From the sequence record PZ242158.1: a stretch of 64,000 nucleotides of DNA. The stretch is one strand, 5' to 3'. The notes beneath the pieces were generated by a model. It was not told the DNA's origin. It was given only the letters and a program-made list of their open reading frames with translations, and did not search any database. Each line of letters starts with the position of its first letter. Position 1 is the first letter of the stretch. The translations under genes and the position numbers were made by a program. Source of the DNA: a phage. This document shows positions 25,797 to 46,065 of this stretch, in pieces.

Positions 25797-26216
25797 ATGA
25801 ACATTAAATCTAATAATCCGGCATATAGCTTTGATAACGCTTTTTGTCACGGTCCGGCGGCGAAAGGATTCGAAATCGATGGTAAACTAATTATTGTCAA
25901 TGTTGACGGGGAAGAGGTTGCAGTATATCCGGTGGCAGACGTAAAAAGCCGTTTACAATGCCGCATGGATGTTACCGCCTATCAGCTTGATCCGGTCCGC
26001 ATAGTTGCCCTGGTCCTGGAAGAAGAAATTAAAGCCATGCACCATAGCAACAGGTTTATTGGTGACGCTCAGGATAATATGAAGGTGTGCCGCCATAAAG
26101 TTAATGAAGTGCTTAAAGAGTACGGCTATAAAGATCTTATGATCAAACGTGATGAAAAATTCCGGTACCGTAACGACCTGGCAAATCGGATTTTTGAAAT
26201 ATACGAATCATTATAA
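25797..26216 (+). CDS. hypothetical protein
   Basis: AAGAGGTAAAAACACC RBS; last + strand gene before the non-coding switch. Confidence 0.55.
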   Translation: MNIKSNNPAYSFDNAFCHGPAAKGFEIDGKLIIVNVDGEEVAVYPVADVKSRLQCRMDVTAYQLDPVRIVALVLEEEIKAMHHSNRFIGDAQDNMKVCRHKVNEVLKEYGYKDLMIKRDEKFRYRNDLANRIFEIYESL

Positions 26217-26234
26217 TTTTTTAACTGAATTATC

Positions 26235-26259
26235 AAGGGGCTTAGGTCCCTTTCTTTTT
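26235..26259 (+). terminator. putative rho-independent terminator
   Basis: AAGGG...CCCTT stem followed by TCTTTTTG. Confidence 0.45.
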
Positions 26260-26859
26260 GTCTGCTCTTCCTCCCTACCATAAACGGCCCTACCTGGCAA
26301 GTGGAATAATTGACGAGCCATCAATCCCACACACTGTACAAATATACATGTAAAATAACTATTGCATAACCTTTCATTGTGTGGTAGCGGTGCTATTTTT
26401 ACCCGTTTTCCTTCCAAAATTGCACGTAATGCAGCTATTGCACAAAATTTAACCTGATGCGCATCTTCAATATCTTGTCAACAACTAAAAATCTTTATAA
26501 GTCATACACTTACACAAACCAAAAAGCGTGTTCTACGTGAAAAATCGAGTATAACTATAGCCGACAGATCTCAGAATTTACGTACGCTCACCATTCTATA
26601 GCCTGCTAAGTATTTATTCCGACCATAGAATAACAGAATAGTCAATACCTGCATAAAATAATTATTCGTTTAAATTGCATAACATAAATCAGCTCAGGTG
26701 TCAACATTTTTCGTAAACAGTCTGAAATTGTCACGGCAAGTTATCATAATCAGAGAAATCTTTAGTCGTCTAATGTTTACTGTACGTTACTATACTAACT
26801 GGAATCATTAGATGACTAATAGAAAGATAAGAAATAATTAACAATACAATTATTTTATC

Positions 26860-27045
26860 TGTAACAATAAGGCAACTATGCAAACGAATGGCATGGCGCG
26901 ACGGAGTCGCGACATAATATAAAAGCAGTAACCATCACCCCCGTGATAGTTTGTCTGCAATCTATTAATCAGATCATAGTTGCCTTGTATTTAGTTAATC
27001 ATGACATAACAAGCAAGGCAACTATAGATCTTCTAATAGTTGCCC
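26860..27045. repeat. iteron-like cluster (AGGCAACTAT / ATAGTTGCC in both orientations)
   Basis: At least four copies within ~180 bp plus duplicated ATGCAAACGAATGGCATGGC and palindrome CGCGACGGAGTCGCG in an AT-rich ORF-poor region. Confidence 0.5.
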
Positions 27046-27284
27046 TGCTTTTATATTATGTCATATATTATTAACTTGTTAATTGTTAGTCAGTCAAATC
27101 AACAGCGTTATCATTTCAGTCTTTATTGTTGTTGATCGTTATTGTTATCATGCAAACGAATGGCATGGCTTATCATCTCTGTATAAACAGTTTATGCGTG
27201 AACAGTGAGGCATGCAATAGTAACAATTGTTATTGTGTCATCATGTCAAGGGTAAAGTGTCATAGTATGTCAGACATGTTTTTC

Positions 27285-28277
27285 CCCTCTTTGTCAAGTG
27301 CTGCATGAAAAAATTTACAAGCTGGTATGGTAGCATTTTTGCGGCCTTGTTTACATTCAGGAGTGTATGTATAATCCTTGTTGTGTGGGCGTTTATACGT
27401 CTGGACGGTCAGAAGTCTGCAGGTTAATATCTAATCTATTGGCTGCTAACTATATCCCACACAAATGATAAGAAATATAATTGTTATATGCGTAAACTGT
27501 AACTCATGTTATCAATCCCTGTATGTATCGCCAGTGGTGCGCATAATGGGTATTATGTTAAATTGCCCGTAATGATAACAGTTCTCACAATGATAGGTAT
27601 TCTCATTCATCCACACAAAATAGGTTGCAAATGTTGTGCCACTGTGTGAACGGCCTGGCCTATTAATTTCTCTCACTGCCTCGATATTTGAGAATTGTTA
27701 TAAGAATGAGAAGTATCCATGTTTATATTACATCTACTTGGTTCAGAACCAAAATGCGCGAAAGCGTTTCACGATAACTAGCGACCACGGTCTGTTCCCT
27801 GGCGGCCATACGGCTTCTACTGAACGCAGCAGAGGGCGATAATCCCCTCTTTGTCAAGTGCTGCATGAAAAAATTTACAAGCTGGTATGGTAGCATTTTT
27901 GCGGCCTTGTTTACATTCAGGAGTGTATGTATAATCCTTGTTGTGTGGGCGTTTATACGTCTGGACGGTCAGAAGTCTGCAGGTTAATATCTAATCTATT
28001 GGCTGCTAACTATATCCCACACAAATGATAAGAAATATAATTGTTATATGCGTAAACTGTAACTCATGTTATCAATCCCTGTATGTATCGCCAGTGGTGC
28101 GCATAATGGGTATTATGTTAAATTGCCCGTAATGATAACAGTTCTCACAATGATAGGTATTCTCATTCATCCACACAAAATAGGTTGCAAATGTTGTGCC
28201 ACTGTGTGAACGGCCTGGCCTATTAATTTCTCTCACTGCCTCGATATTTGAGAATTGTTATAAGAATGAGAAGTATT
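27285..28277. repeat. tandem direct repeat: two near-identical ~430-bp copies (about 27285-27717 and 27845-28277) separated by ~128 bp
   Basis: Long stretches read identically at a ~560-bp offset; each copy contains promoter-like TTGTTT-17-TATAAT. Confidence 0.7.
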
Positions 28278-40659: not shown

Positions 40660-40974
40660 CTACCAGGTTACTGTCAAGTAGGCAACCGTATTATTTTTCT
40701 CTGGGGAGATGCCAACAACATCTACCTGCAGACCTCCTGCCCTTAAATCTCCAACAATGTGCGGGAAGTAATCTGAGAGATGCGAGGGCAGATTTATCGA
40801 AAATCCGCACCCCAGAAAGCCTGCTAACGCTTTATTTTGTATCTCCCCTACAATCGCATCATAAATGGAGTTAAGCTCGTCAGGGAGCGTTACAGGGCGT
40901 TTTAGCGCTAGCTGGTGTAATTTGTCCTTAGCACTCATTTTCATTTCAGGTCTACCTCTGGGGGTGCCAACCAC
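40660..40974 (-). CDS. hypothetical protein
   Basis: ORF in array. Confidence 0.5.
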   Translation of the reverse strand: MVGTPRGRPEMKMSAKDKLHQLALKRPVTLPDELNSIYDAIVGEIQNKALAGFLGCGFSINLPSHLSDYFPHIVGDLRAGGLQVDVVGISPEKNNTVAYLTVTW

Positions 40975-41474
40975 ATAAACGGCGGCAAGTCTAAACGGTT
41001 TTTCTTATCCCACACAAAATATGCATATGCTTGCCCGTCAGTTCTGCCGTTTGATTGAAATGATGGACGCTTAGATATTGTGATCACAGTAGTAGGTGCA
41101 TTATCAAGCCACCATTCAAATCTGGCTTTGCTTTCCAGAAAATTAAGACGCAAAAGCATAATAACTACGTCAGCATCTTTCAACGCCTTGTCTACAAACT
41201 CACGAGCCAGGCTGTATGGTGGGTTGGTGATAATACAGTCAACATGGTTGTATTCTGTATTCAGATAGTCAACACCTTCTTGTATTTCTCCCCATGCAGA
41301 TCCTAACGGCATACGGGAGTAGAACACACCTGAGGCACTATTCCTGCAAGGCTCTAAGTAGGTCCAGTCTTCTGGGAACGGAATAAGGTCATACAGCCCT
41401 TCTGCACACCACTCCGGTGTCACATACTCATCGTAGGCGTTACGTTGTTCATCAGGTTTTCTAGCACAAGTCAT
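40941..41474 (-). CDS. putative N6-adenine methyltransferase (short, gamma-class-like)
   Basis: YVTPEW (motif X-like), LEPCRNSASGVF (motif I-like), CIITNPPYS (motif IV NPPY); only 177 aa. Confidence 0.55.
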   Translation of the reverse strand: MTCARKPDEQRNAYDEYVTPEWCAEGLYDLIPFPEDWTYLEPCRNSASGVFYSRMPLGSAWGEIQEGVDYLNTEYNHVDCIITNPPYSLAREFVDKALKDADVVIMLLRLNFLESKARFEWWLDNAPTTVITISKRPSFQSNGRTDGQAYAYFVWDKKNRLDLPPFMWLAPPEVDLK

Positions 41475-41490
41475 GCAAATCTCCAGATCA

Positions 41491-41513
41491 TAAAAGCCCT
41501 CCGAAGAGGGCTT
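41491..41513 (-). terminator. intergenic hairpin, putative terminator
   Basis: AAGCCCTC-TTCG-GAGGGCTT hairpin downstream of the ClpP-like stop. Confidence 0.45.
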
Positions 41514-41525
41514 TAGAATTAATGT

Positions 41526-42575
41526 TTAAGCTTCTTCGACAATTCCTGCACCCAGGATTTTTTCATTGAGCTCTTTTGCTGTTTTAATAATATTGTCCAC
41601 AAGACGCTTGCGAGTCTTATCTTTCACCTTAACCTCTTCACCGCCGTTCAGAGTAGTCTTCAATTGAGACAGAATATCCTGAAGTTCAACGACAGAGAAT
41701 CTCTGCAGATCTTCTGAAGTAATCTCACCCAGGGCAATTCGGACGGTCTCGCCACTTTCCATCTGCAGATTCAGGAACACAGTGTGAACATCACCTTTCG
41801 AACCACCCGCTTTTGCAGATTCAACAGCATGAACTAACTCATCTAAAGATGTGCACTGATGAATCTCCGGAAGACCTGCTTCACCTAACACGCCTTCTTC
41901 ATCACCTTTTGCCAGAAGCTTTTTCGGTTTTTGTCCGTTCTGGATGCGTTGTATGTTGCCTTCATCCAGAATAATAGCTCCAGTGCGTGCTGCCAACTCT
42001 TCTCCGTCCAACCACACTTCGCCACCAGCTGTGATGGATGCGATCTCATCTTCTGTCAGCACCCCACCGTAGTATTTTTCGATCAGGTGTTCAAAACGTT
42101 TTTTCCAGTAGCTGACCTGAGTATTCATGTTAACACCGTTACCATAAGTGCCACCTTGATAGTAGTGGAACATAAATTCTGTGTCCGGAGCCACAGTGCG
42201 TTCTTTGCAACCAAGCCATAAGATTGTTCCAGCAGAGCAGCACATCCCTTCAGCATGTGCAACAACGCTTGCCTGAGACTCGCGGAATGCCTGCAGATAG
42301 GCCATTGCAATGTGCACGCAACCACCAGGGCTATTGATGATCACACGTATGCTTTCTTCCGGCTGAGCCATACGGATCGTCTGCAGACGAGACATATGAT
42401 CCTGCAGGTCCTCCAAATCGTCGATATAAAGAACGTGGTCAACAACAGGTGTTGGGTAGCTGTATGTTTCCATGATACCGCCCGGCATACCAAACATTTT
42501 ATTACTCATAGGTTCGAAACCGTTCTGTTTTTCTTTCATGCCGTGTACCATGGTGCTGCGAGGTGTTAAATTCAT
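41526..42575 (-). CDS. ClpP-like serine peptidase (S14 family) with C-terminal extension
   Basis: IINSPGGCVHIAMAYLQAF...VAHAEGMCCSAGTILWL...FMFHYYQG matches the ClpP fold with Ser and His positions; ~130-aa charged C-terminal extension. Confidence 0.7.
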   Translation of the reverse strand: MNLTPRSTMVHGMKEKQNGFEPMSNKMFGMPGGIMETYSYPTPVVDHVLYIDDLEDLQDHMSRLQTIRMAQPEESIRVIINSPGGCVHIAMAYLQAFRESQASVVAHAEGMCCSAGTILWLGCKERTVAPDTEFMFHYYQGGTYGNGVNMNTQVSYWKKRFEHLIEKYYGGVLTEDEIASITAGGEVWLDGEELAARTGAIILDEGNIQRIQNGQKPKKLLAKGDEEGVLGEAGLPEIHQCTSLDELVHAVESAKAGGSKGDVHTVFLNLQMESGETVRIALGEITSEDLQRFSVVELQDILSQLKTTLNGGEEVKVKDKTRKRLVDNIIKTAKELNEKILGAGIVEEA

Positions 42576-42635: not shown

Positions 42636-42947
42636 TTATTTAGCAATCACTATGGAGTACTTACGATTGTCAGAAGCATCACAACTCAGTGATTGCCAAT
42701 CTACCACATACCACGTATCATTGTCAACAATTACTTTATCGCCTGTTCTGTAGCAAGTGCTGCTTTCAATAATTCGAGACTCGATAAAGAATCTGTGTCG
42801 GCGCTCACGTAGCAACGCTAAGTTGATTATATTACCACCGCTGTCCTTGGTCCACACATTCTTGGATCCTTTATTTGCCAAAATTGTCTCACCGTTATAG
42901 ACAAATAGGCAGTATATTTTATTCAGTTTCTCTTGTATTGTAGCCAT
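42636..42947 (-). CDS. hypothetical protein
   Basis: Internal Met after AGAAGGA RBS (track ORF extends to 43070 and would overlap phoH). Confidence 0.5.
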   Translation of the reverse strand: MATIQEKLNKIYCLFVYNGETILANKGSKNVWTKDSGGNIINLALLRERRHRFFIESRIIESSTCYRTGDKVIVDNDTWYVVDWQSLSCDASDNRKYSIVIAK

Positions 42948-42975: not shown

Positions 42976-43004
42976 ATAATATCTAAAGCTTGCCTATTTG
43001 TCAA
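42976..43004 (-). promoter_or_regulatory. sigma70-like promoter (minus strand)
   Basis: On the minus strand: TTGACA, 17 bp, TATTAT. Confidence 0.5.
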
Positions 43005-43048: not shown

Positions 43049-43837
43049 TTACTCGGAAACAGGGGTCCAAATATGATTTGCACGATCCTCAATAAGATTG
43101 AGTGCGATTTGACGACCCAACCCGGAACGAACGACATCGTCTGGACTATCAAAGCTGATCATTCCAACCTCAGGATCTGGATGACGAGTAAAGAAATCTG
43201 TCACCCATGCAAGGCCAGATTTACCAGGGATGTCACGTTGGCTATTATCACCCATAATTACAAGGGTGGCTTGATCAGAGATCCTTGTGATAATTGACAA
43301 CATTTCTTCAGGGTTAGTTTGCTGTGCCTCGTCAATCAGGACAAAGCATCGCTCATCGAAACTACGACCACGAATGCTTTCAACTTCACAAATCTCGATA
43401 CGACTGTTCTGACCGTCTCCCAGCATTGCGGCAAAAGCACCTTTGCCAACACGACGACAAATCGTGTCCATCATGCTTCGAAGATAGGGCCACAGTTTCT
43501 GCATTGCATTTCCGGGTTTAAATCCTGAAGTCTTTCCTGTCTGGACGTAAGGACGTGCAACAATGATCTTATCAATCTCGTTCTTACGCAGAAGATCACC
43601 TGCATATGCAGATGCCATAAATGTCTTACCGGATCCAAACACGCCGTTTACAATAATAATCTTACGTGACCCTAGATAATCAAGATACTTTTGCTGCTTC
43701 TTATTCATTGGTCGGAGAGCTGGAGCGGTGTGCTCTCTTTCGTCAGCAAATTTCTCAGCAGCCTTACGCAGGCGATCAGATTTGCGAGCCTCTCTAGCTT
43801 CATCACGCATGCGTTTTGTTTCTTTAGCTCGACCCAT
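43049..43837 (-). CDS. phoH: PhoH-like ATPase
   Basis: Walker A GVFGSGKTF and PhoH-family similarity through the core. Confidence 0.85.
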   Translation of the reverse strand: MGRAKETKRMRDEAREARKSDRLRKAAEKFADEREHTAPALRPMNKKQQKYLDYLGSRKIIIVNGVFGSGKTFMASAYAGDLLRKNEIDKIIVARPYVQTGKTSGFKPGNAMQKLWPYLRSMMDTICRRVGKGAFAAMLGDGQNSRIEICEVESIRGRSFDERCFVLIDEAQQTNPEEMLSIITRISDQATLVIMGDNSQRDIPGKSGLAWVTDFFTRHPDPEVGMISFDSPDDVVRSGLGRQIALNLIEDRANHIWTPVSE

Positions 43838-44367: not shown

Positions 44368-44397
44368 ATTATACCTATCTAAACAAAGCTTTGTCAA
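44368..44397 (-). promoter_or_regulatory. sigma70-like promoter (minus strand)
   Basis: On the minus strand: TTGACA, 18 bp, TATAAT. Confidence 0.5.
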
Positions 44398-44987: not shown

Positions 44988-45035
44988 GCTGCACCTCCTT
45001 TAGTTTATAACATGTTTAAAGGTTGATATATGGCT

Positions 45036-46028
45036 CTACAGGTTATTACCTGTCCTATGTTTACAACAAATCTCTCTATGCGCTGATTCTACCATACTGA
45101 ACACTTCAGGTCTGTAGTTAAAGAATTCGGTACTACCATCAAATTTTACAGGGAAGTTTATTTTATATTTACTGAAGGCTTTGTGCATAGATTTTTCTAC
45201 AGCCAGCATGTTTTCAGTTGATCCTTCCAACGTTTTCACTATGTGAAGATCGCGGATACCAGCTCCAGATCTTTGTGCACTTTTAAGTATCTGGTCTCTT
45301 CGCTTACTTTCATTATGACTGACCCCTATTTTCATAAATGTAGGTACTTCTGGATCATCAACCATAATGTAGAGTTTTCCGTTATCGTGTGATAAAAATC
45401 CTGTTTTAGCGCATCTAGGGCAAGCATGTCCCTGCTTAAGACTGCTTGGTACGGTTAACCATGTGTGGCTACAACCTTTACAGCAGCACAGGACTTTCTT
45501 ATCCCACCCAATAATTTCTTCCAATATCTCAACATAAGGATTTCTACTTCTTATGGACTCAACCCACTTTTCGTGTGGTGATGTTTTACTTTGTGAGATT
45601 CTTGACCCCTTGCAAACTGGACAACCTCTTTTCAAATTTATATGGTTATCAGGTGTCTGTGTAAAGTGATTTCCACAAGTGTTGCAGATTATTTCTACCC
45701 TGTCTTTGCAAGTCTTGTAGTATACGAGAGAGTAGTCATATTTATCTCCATGGATTTCTTTGGCCCTTTCTACAAATTTAAGACCTTTATTACACTTTGC
45801 AGCACGAGAAAGTTTTGCACAAAAAGGACAACCACGACCTTGCAAGTGTTTACAAGGTGCTTGCATAAAATCCCCATGGATTTGGCAGGTAATGCAAACC
45901 TTCGCATAGCAATCCACGTACACTGTTTTCGTGTAATCGTATTTATAACCGTGAATGATTTTCGCCTTCTCTATAAACTCTTCTGTTGATAATTTAGCCA
46001 TTTCTTGTTTCCTAACTTCCCTAAACAT
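45036..46028 (-). CDS. homing-endonuclease-like protein (repeated zinc-binding modules plus T5orf172/GIY-YIG-like C-terminal domain)
   Basis: Three repeats of HG-KYDYS...C..C...G.F...P..H...GCP.C; C-terminal GKLYIM...KIGVS block. Confidence 0.5.
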   Translation of the reverse strand: MFREVRKQEMAKLSTEEFIEKAKIIHGYKYDYTKTVYVDCYAKVCITCQIHGDFMQAPCKHLQGRGCPFCAKLSRAAKCNKGLKFVERAKEIHGDKYDYSLVYYKTCKDRVEIICNTCGNHFTQTPDNHINLKRGCPVCKGSRISQSKTSPHEKWVESIRSRNPYVEILEEIIGWDKKVLCCCKGCSHTWLTVPSSLKQGHACPRCAKTGFLSHDNGKLYIMVDDPEVPTFMKIGVSHNESKRRDQILKSAQRSGAGIRDLHIVKTLEGSTENMLAVEKSMHKAFSKYKINFPVKFDGSTEFFNYRPEVFSMVESAHREICCKHRTGNNL

Positions 46029-46065
46029 CTGTATAGTGCCACATCCTTGTGGCTTTTGTCAAGTA

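Follow-up and report, generated by a model that had tools for sequence, protein, structure and literature searches.

Positions 41,526 to 42,575 of a 64,000-nucleotide stretch of phage DNA (sequence record PZ242158.1; the whole stretch is called the window below) carry, on the minus strand, an open reading frame (ORF) for a ClpP-like protease of 349 amino acids (aa). The frame runs from an ATG at 42575 to a stop codon at 41526-41528, with an AAGGA ribosome-binding site 8 nt 5' of the ATG. The ORF and the motifs quoted for it in a preliminary description of this DNA were borne out, with INSPGG at residues 80-85, GMCCSAG at residues 110-116, and FMFHYYQG at residues 134-141. We assigned the window to Vequintavirus, as an rV5-like Escherichia myovirus; its 38-48 kb part is 99.7% identical to phage nom. 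The protease corresponds to rV5 gp122, is 99.4% identical to bas49_0178 of phage EmilHeitz, and shows 100% amino acid identity to the 'ATP-dependent protease subunit' of phage ime. Compared to these gp122-type proteins, the window protease shows no difference at the sequence level, and all of them have the same length of 349 aa and the same neighbours, namely PhoH, a 103-aa ORF, and a small methyltransferase. The gene is an already known object. There are 119 near-identical records, it is annotated in more than 100 genomes, and it has been labelled since the 2013 rV5 paper, which lists gp122 as 'ClpP (ATP-dependent) protease subunit' with 349 aa and 38541 Da (Table S3; PMC3606486). The profile of PHROG 5410 matched the protein almost from end to end (2.2e-154; residues 24-345 on profile positions 4-322 of 323), so that the match takes in the C-terminal domain too. 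PADLOC gave no defence-system match for the protease or for gp121, the product of the 103-aa ORF. The features of the locus are collected in Table 1.

We used an AlphaFold model built from 19 homologs, which also form the subfamily set for the conservation counts, and a more distant comparison set of 10 phage lineages that are only 18-30% identical to one another. In the model, residues 1-43 are disordered, residues 45-222 are folded with high confidence, and a low-confidence stretch at about 223-263 leads to the C-terminal domain. The first structured element is a strand at residues 46-51, and it opens a domain for which the top 50 Foldseek matches were all ClpP (E about 5e-10; template modelling score 0.62-0.72 normalised to target, about 0.68), with about 170 residues superposed at about 20% identity. 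The Pfam model CLP_protease (PF00574) scored 47 bits (E 3.5e-12; cutoff 20.2) and covered profile positions 32-143 of 182, and hhalign aligned the protease with E. coli ClpP at an E-value of 4.9e-9 in a profile alignment that ends at residue 150. Cellular ClpP (MEROPS S14; PDB 1TYF/6WR2) and the phage protein share the same fold, with Ser and His at homologous positions, and both the oxyanion motif (INSPGG) and a handle motif rich in glycine are present. The region ahead of the domain bears an FGMPGG...YSYP motif that, in the alignment, is conserved within the gp122 subfamily and specific to it; in the other lineages the N-terminus is short and variable, with just 12-16 residues ahead of the first strand.

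The preliminary description had also proposed the catalytic residues, and these were present on alignment. Ser114, His137, and the GG of the oxyanion motif are invariant in the 19 subfamily members and in the 10 divergent lineages. A candidate for the third triad residue is Glu186, which lies 49 residues after His137, the same spacing as between His122 and Asp171 in E. coli ClpP. Glu186 also aligns with the Asp of a head-type relative in a hhalign comparison (E 4.3e-9) that covers residues 74-195 and includes the third triad position. This position holds D or E in 8 of the 10 lineages and Q in the other 2, and within the subfamily it is E in 4 members and Q in 15. On these alignments the Ser-His pair is certain, but a full triad is not.

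Table 1. Features of the protease gene and its surroundings (positions in the window)
Feature	Position	Strand	Remarks
Small Dam-related DNA methyltransferase gene	40941..41474	minus	Directly downstream of protease; PHROG 799 (8e-67), weak Pfam Dam match
Predicted Rho-independent terminator	41496..41511	minus	Hairpin GCCCTC-TTCG-GAGGGC + TTTTAT, 14 nt past protease stop; unique exact match in window
ClpP-like protease gene (349 aa)	41526..42575	minus	ORF; rV5 gp122, PHROG 5410
C-terminal domain, residues 265-349	41529..41783	minus	Predicted beta-hairpin and two long helices; subfamily-specific
Variable linker, residues about 216-264	41784..41930	minus	pLDDT (model confidence) 36-64; net charge -3 (mildly acidic)
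ClpP-fold peptidase domain, residues about 45-215	41931..42443	minus	pLDDT mostly 86-94; Foldseek, hhalign
Glu186 codon, candidate third triad residue	42018..42020	minus	Position of ClpP Asp171; motif alignment GGE-VW with ERD-RF
His137 codon, predicted general base	42165..42167	minus	FMFHYYQG; aligns with ClpP His122
Ser114 codon, predicted nucleophile	42234..42236	minus	GMCCSAG; aligns with ClpP Ser97
N-terminal region, residues about 1-44	42444..42575	minus	Predicted disordered; pLDDT 30-40
103-aa ORF (rV5 gp121), unknown function	42636..42947	minus	Between PhoH and protease; PHROG 5456 (2e-39)
Predicted sigma-70-type promoter	42976..43004	minus	TTGACA-17-TATTAT (11/12), by scan; just past PhoH stop, before 103-aa ORF
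PhoH-like ATPase gene	43049..43837	minus	Upstream of protease; Pfam PhoH (3.6e-47)

Beyond its own subfamily, the protease domain matched PHROG 1827 (3.2e-40), whose members include ICP1 GP211, PaP1 gp041, phiPsa347 gp048, Barba gp072, ORF255 of the T4-like phage ValKK3, and proteins of a T5-like Klebsiella phage and of N4-like vibriophages. The peptidase domains of these proteins are homologous to that of gp122 (25-35% identity), and GG, Ser, and His do not vary among them. Most of them are 180-245 aa long and lack the gp122 C-terminal domain and, like all PHROG 1827 proteases outside the gp122 subfamily, its N-terminal motif; the ICP1 protease, at 326 aa, has an extension without detectable similarity to that of gp122. 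In all loci examined, the PHROG 1827 gene is surrounded by genes for replication or nucleotide metabolism, and in none does it stand between those for portal and capsid. This free-standing form was seen in T4-like, T5-like, N4-like, ICP1, Pakpunavirus, Otagovirus, and Barbavirus phages, and a location outside the head module was found for the lineage of the window and for 12 other lineage clusters. The window itself holds no structural genes, as noted earlier for this DNA, and aligns collinearly with EmilHeitz 68.5-129.5 kb, where genes for replication and nucleotide metabolism lie. Together, these results suggest that gp122 is probably, although by no means certainly, a non-structural ClpP-fold serine peptidase of a phage-specific family (PHROG 1827, with PHROG 5410 as the long form) that occurs outside head modules in many large virulent phages. 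A host-directed role has been proposed for the patchily distributed phage ClpP proteins (PMC7824862), in agreement with this explanation.

The predicted transcription signals of the locus point in the same direction. One promoter-terminator pair encloses gp121 and the protease gene as a predicted transcription unit, and both signals were predicted independently by the rV5 authors, as promoter P121 and as terminator t122 with -14.9 kcal/mol (rV5 Table S4). The same authors found a T4-like late-promoter motif upstream of structural genes only, and a motif scan of the 64-kb window did not find it. Because the promoter is of the sigma-70 type, the unit has a terminator of its own, and the late motif is absent, the protease is probably made early or in the middle of infection and not with the late structural proteins. 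We found no transcriptome for the gene, and the paper on the PAK_P3/PAK_P4 transcriptome holds no gene-level data for the Clp-like gene. Of the two roles that the preliminary description had offered, the free-standing protease is the one supported by the position of the family among replication and nucleotide genes in other phages and by these predicted signals.

The small methyltransferase and PhoH that had been named as the neighbours are both present, but the 103-aa ORF that separates PhoH from the protease had been omitted. No Pfam match was obtained for gp121, which might serve the protease as an adaptor or as a regulator. In ICP1 and Klebsiella phage DP, ORFs of similar size also stand between the two genes and suggested that these are conserved, yet blastp found no similarity apart from weak local matches of gp121 to two ORFs of phage DP in the corresponding position. 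The methyltransferase on the other side is homologous to neighbours labelled PF05869 in two of the fetched loci, L028 and L030.

The C-terminal extension comprises residues 216-349 (134 aa) and has 31% charged residues and a net charge of -6, so that the size and charge given in the preliminary description stood. The picture of a uniform charged tail did not, since the model resolves the extension into a low-confidence linker followed by a folded domain. Within the subfamily alignment, the linker differs in length and sequence. The domain was folded with confidence at residues 265-343 (pLDDT 78-93), as it was when modelled separately (pLDDT 83), and F293, E297, L298, R322, and L325 are conserved in it. 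When 1.84 billion representatives were searched exhaustively with a profile of the domain, there were only 7 matches, of which 5 belong to the same family and 2 are spurious repeat proteins. Fold searches gave no convincing match, with BFVD returning one family member only, and Pfam gave sub-threshold noise only (MpsC, Scm3). When the domain profile was compared with the ICP1 GP211 extension, the ValKK3 tail, and the scaffold of the phage itself, the scores were around 0 bits, indicating no similarity. As far as these searches reach, the last ~85 residues are an orphan domain confined to the gp122 subfamily.

The position of PhoH upstream of the protease is not peculiar to the window. All fetched loci were scanned with hidden Markov models (HMMs) for PhoH, Dam-like, and Clp-like proteins, and clustering of the proteases at 45% identity or more gave 13 free-standing clusters. 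A PhoH gene lies on the same strand no more than 1.4 kb upstream of the protease in 8 of these 13 clusters, or in 6 of 11 if the three Vequintavirinae genera count once. The two genes abut or overlap in 5 clusters (Otagovirus-like, Barba/L028/L030, L031/L032 and L014/L015, and phiPsa347 with an overlap of 8 nt). Behind the protease there is a small Dam-related methylase in Vequintavirinae and in L028 and L030, and a different adenine methylase in Barba. The order PhoH, ClpP-like peptidase, with or without a following small Dam-like methylase, was seen in loci L008, L010, L014, L028, L030, L031, and L032. We found no description of the PhoH-protease linkage in the literature searched.

These arrangements raise the alternative that gp122 is coupled to PhoH, whose ATPase would act as unfoldase or translocase, or as a co-factor on the same target, in a phage-specific two-component machine. 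Besides the conserved synteny and the recurring methylase, such coupling would fit the loss of the ClpX/ClpA docking pocket described below, which leaves room for a different partner. In contrast, no PhoH was found within 5-6 kb of the protease in KVP40-like, T5-like, N4-like, and L034 members, leaving 5 of the 13 clusters without a nearby PhoH. PhoH as an obligate partner was rejected because the protease occurs in PaP1, whose complete genome lacks PhoH altogether. About 120 close relatives of PaP1 carry the same protease. PhoH is also far commoner than the protease family, being present in at least 2437 phage records, and the literature presents PhoH proteins as RNA helicases with a relationship to those of SF1 and not as unfoldases of proteins. 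Within the window, a promoter stands between PhoH and the gp121-protease unit. Moreover, since rV5 and PaP1 share their head-module layout, the linked lineages are partly related in this respect and much of the synteny may be inherited. We therefore consider a PhoH-coupled protease unlikely. A similarly low probability attaches to a PhoH-peptidase(-methylase) cassette, in which an ATPase-peptidase pair, or a shared RNA-protein target, would serve early host takeover with the C-terminal domain doing the recruiting in Vequintavirinae. If true, the cassette would be the first mechanistic context for phage PhoH, which is very widespread, and a functional linkage would bear on the long-standing question of its role. 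If the linkage is merely inherited synteny, gp122 would be left as an accessory gene of the ordinary kind. Nothing in the locus but the PhoH association might lead somewhere new, the gene being otherwise known.

The preliminary description had left room for a displaced morphogenetic protease and had suggested a search for capsid and portal genes elsewhere in the genome. We made this search in close relatives, which hold a complete head module far from the protease gene and not adjoining it. In EmilHeitz, the module lies at 0.7-6.8 kb and consists of terminase, portal, protease, scaffold, decoration protein, and a Phage_cap_E capsid protein, with a 139-aa Peptidase_S78_2 (XkdF-type) protein as the head protease and a scaffold of 325 aa. 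The ClpP-like gene is at 109.4-110.5 kb, which is 105 kb from the head module along the record and about 33 kb across the record ends. In the relatives, the slot between portal and scaffold or capsid is taken by the Peptidase_S78_2 (XkdF) gene and not by a ClpP-like gene. In 118 records the XkdF-type protease shows a conservation of at least 99%, and these are roughly the records that carry gp122. Barba phages likewise have a separate head peptidase besides the ClpP-like protease. The virion proteomics that had also been proposed could be taken from the literature. Mass spectrometry (MS) of rV5 virions detected 19 proteins, gp122 not among them, and the virion MS list of CB7 (Certrevirus) includes the head-module protease and no Clp-like protein. 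For procapsids, the literature searched yielded no data.

The XkdF-type head protease has an annotation problem of its own. Its best match, for both the EmilHeitz gene (L001:3957-4376) and PaP1 gp048 (L036:2525-2995), was phrog_1530, which is labelled 'DNA methyltransferase', and the records of PaP1 and of several Vequintavirus phages give the gene the same annotation, which appears to be an error that has been passed on.

The HMM comparison with ClpP and prohead protease families did not set gp122 clearly on the ClpP side, as its library scores place the family no farther from the head-maturation proteases of phages than from cellular ClpP. PHROG 1684 (head maturation) scored 79 bits and NCBIfam Clp_rel_HeadMat (NF045542) 60.6 bits, the latter below its curated cutoff of 120, compared to 47 bits for Pfam CLP_protease and 38.8 bits for the best cellular ClpP model; the 79 bits of PHROG 1684 are far fewer than the protein reaches with its own families. 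By HMM score, head-maturation proteases (NF045542; PHROGs 1684, 94, 2976, and 133) are the closest families after its own. They have a similar overall length, with a protease domain and a C-terminal extension, but their C-terminal parts are unrelated to that of gp122, which moreover lies outside the head module of a genome with a different, XkdF-type, head protease. Two relatives that do sit in head modules, P0123 and P0127, are directly followed by decoration protein D (HDPD) and then by an E-type capsid gene (Phage_cap_E); they scored 64-66 bits with the family profile, compared to at least 150 bits for the free-standing members. From these profile scores it is plausible that the family came from a phage head-protease-like ancestor and not from capture of a host clpP, and to call the protease a host-derived auxiliary metabolic gene is doubtful, given that the family is at least as near to phage head proteases as to host ClpP.

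This affinity, together with a length and architecture similar to those of head-module protease-scaffold fusions, speaks for the alternative that gp122 is, or assists, the prohead protease and that its C-terminal domain targets the capsid or resembles a scaffold in its role; moreover, the XkdF-type protein has no more than a predicted activity. The complete head module with its own protease and separate scaffold argues otherwise, as do the sigma-70-type promoter and terminator, the lack of the late motif, the absence from rV5 and CB7 virions although the CB7 head-module protease was detected, and the lack of similarity between the C-terminal domain and the phage scaffold or the head-type relatives. 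The family also coexists with other head proteases in Barbavirus and in T4-like phages. T4-type phages have their own prohead protease, gp21. A displaced morphogenetic protease is thus quite unlikely, and the question of morphogenesis is largely settled. Since the phages carry a separate head protease, gp122 appears to be an accessory enzyme and becomes a candidate for the remodelling of host or phage proteins during infection.

We compared the region through which ClpP docks on its ATPases. The E. coli ClpP residues that hold the IGL/IGF loop are listed in a cryo-electron microscopy paper on ClpAP (bioRxiv 10.1101/820209), and they were mapped to gp122 by profile alignment to E. coli ClpP, which is not a structural test. 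Eleven pocket residues could be mapped. Three of them (L48, F49, and A52) fall in a five-residue deletion, six are replaced by R, E, H, E, T, and A (Y60 by R77, F82 by E99, I90 by H107, M92 by E109, F112 by T127, and L114 by A129), L23 is replaced by P43, and only Y62, which becomes I79, stays hydrophobic. R77, E99, H107, E109, and T127 are invariant inside the subfamily, and the same positions vary between lineages. In this mapping, the hydrophobic pocket for the IGF/IGL loops of ClpX and ClpA is almost entirely lost. In addition, neither the model nor the alignments show anything that corresponds to helix A and the N-terminal axial loop, by which ClpP gates its pore and contacts the ATPase, and the curated ClpP models scored far below their cutoffs, with 33.2 bits for TIGR00493 (cutoff 308.6) and 37.9 bits for PRK00277 (cutoff 249).

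It is very unlikely, on this evidence, that gp122 is a canonical ClpP subunit that hijacks host unfoldases, with E. coli ClpX or ClpA driving rings made of gp122 alone or of gp122 together with host ClpP. The fold, the Ser and His, a handle motif (QGGxxGxGxN) similar to the LGGxQGQATD of ClpP, and the Pfam score above threshold would all fit such a subunit. Against it stand the pocket residues deleted or swapped for polar ones that are invariant in the subfamily, the missing axial loop and helix A, the failure of the curated models, and an identity to ClpP structures of merely about 20%. The protein further departs from cellular ClpP in having Glu or Gln in place of the triad Asp and in its additional 134-aa C-terminal extension. 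The ClpP/S14 domain proposed earlier for the N-terminal ~210 aa therefore holds for the fold, Ser, and His, as found by Foldseek and Pfam, but not in the sense of an ATPase-coupled ClpP, which gp122 probably is not. As the docking surface, axial loop, and helix A are missing and the curated ClpP models fall far under their cutoffs, the 'ATP-dependent' label is, on this sequence mapping, unsupported. The name 'ATP-dependent Clp protease proteolytic subunit' implies a ClpX or ClpA partner, and this functional part of the annotation is probably wrong.

A non-catalytic role, in which gp122 would be a decoy, inhibitor, or scaffold that, for example, poisons host ClpP rings or sequesters a host factor and in which cleavage would not be the main function, is very unlikely, because the Gln at the third triad position in 15 of 19 subfamily members and the large invariant polar patch (R77, E99, H107-A-E109, and T127) suggestive of a conserved interaction surface are set against Ser114, His137, and GG kept across lineages 18-30% identical, the pattern expected of an active enzyme, and against the compatibility of Ser-His dyads, and of Ser-His-Glu or Gln-assisted variants, with catalysis.

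Taking gp122 as a non-structural ClpP-fold peptidase, we propose that host RNA polymerase would transcribe gp121 and gp122 as a two-gene unit early or in the middle of infection and that gp122 might assemble into ClpP-like rings through its retained handle region. Its cleavage of host or phage proteins would take place in the cytoplasm by a Ser-His dyad helped by Glu186, with no Clp ATPase involved, and the C-terminal domain on its flexible linker may recruit substrates or partners or control assembly. The family, in this proposal, would derive from a phage head-protease-like ancestor.

Several points weigh against this explanation. Most subfamily members have Gln, not Glu, at the third triad position. 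Both ATP independence and ring assembly are deduced from sequence, and the early or mid-infection timing follows from predicted signals only. Absence from the virion is weak evidence, given the shallow depth of the MS on rV5 virions and the fact that a maturation protease often departs from the capsid; the XkdF-type head protein, for its part, is a protease by prediction only. The arrangement of protease, linker, and C-terminal domain over about 350 aa resembles the head-module protease-scaffold fusions P0123 (344 aa) and P0127 (325 aa). The proposed origin is unsettled because the hhalign E-values for E. coli ClpP and the head-type protease are equal (4.9e-9 and 4.3e-9). Finally, the literature on rV5 ClpP, phage-encoded ClpP, ICP1 ClpP, and ClpP-like proteins with PhoH yielded no functional study of any family member.

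Other observations concern the surrounding sequence and the records that match it. About 18-23 GenBank records of the MG0656xx series, entered as 'Campylobacter phage' with Campylobacter jejuni as host, are 99-100% identical to E. coli rV5-like phages, and several of them are unannotated fragments; a wrong host label or a contaminated sample is the probable cause. At 44368-44397 on the minus strand, upstream of the small ORFs that precede PhoH, there is a sigma-70 consensus without mismatch (TTGACA-18-TATAAT, 12/12), the counterpart of rV5 promoter P118. Between the NrdG and NrdD genes there is a 330-aa ORF with several CxxC pairs (45036-46028, minus strand), and the stretch 44999-46033 that contains it is missing from phage EmilHeitz; this stretch is probably a mobile insertion of the homing-endonuclease type. 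At about 26000-28000 of the window, GC content dips to 0.37 and both coding strand and GC skew switch, which fits the switch of transcription direction and the gene-poor stretch described for rV5-like genomes.

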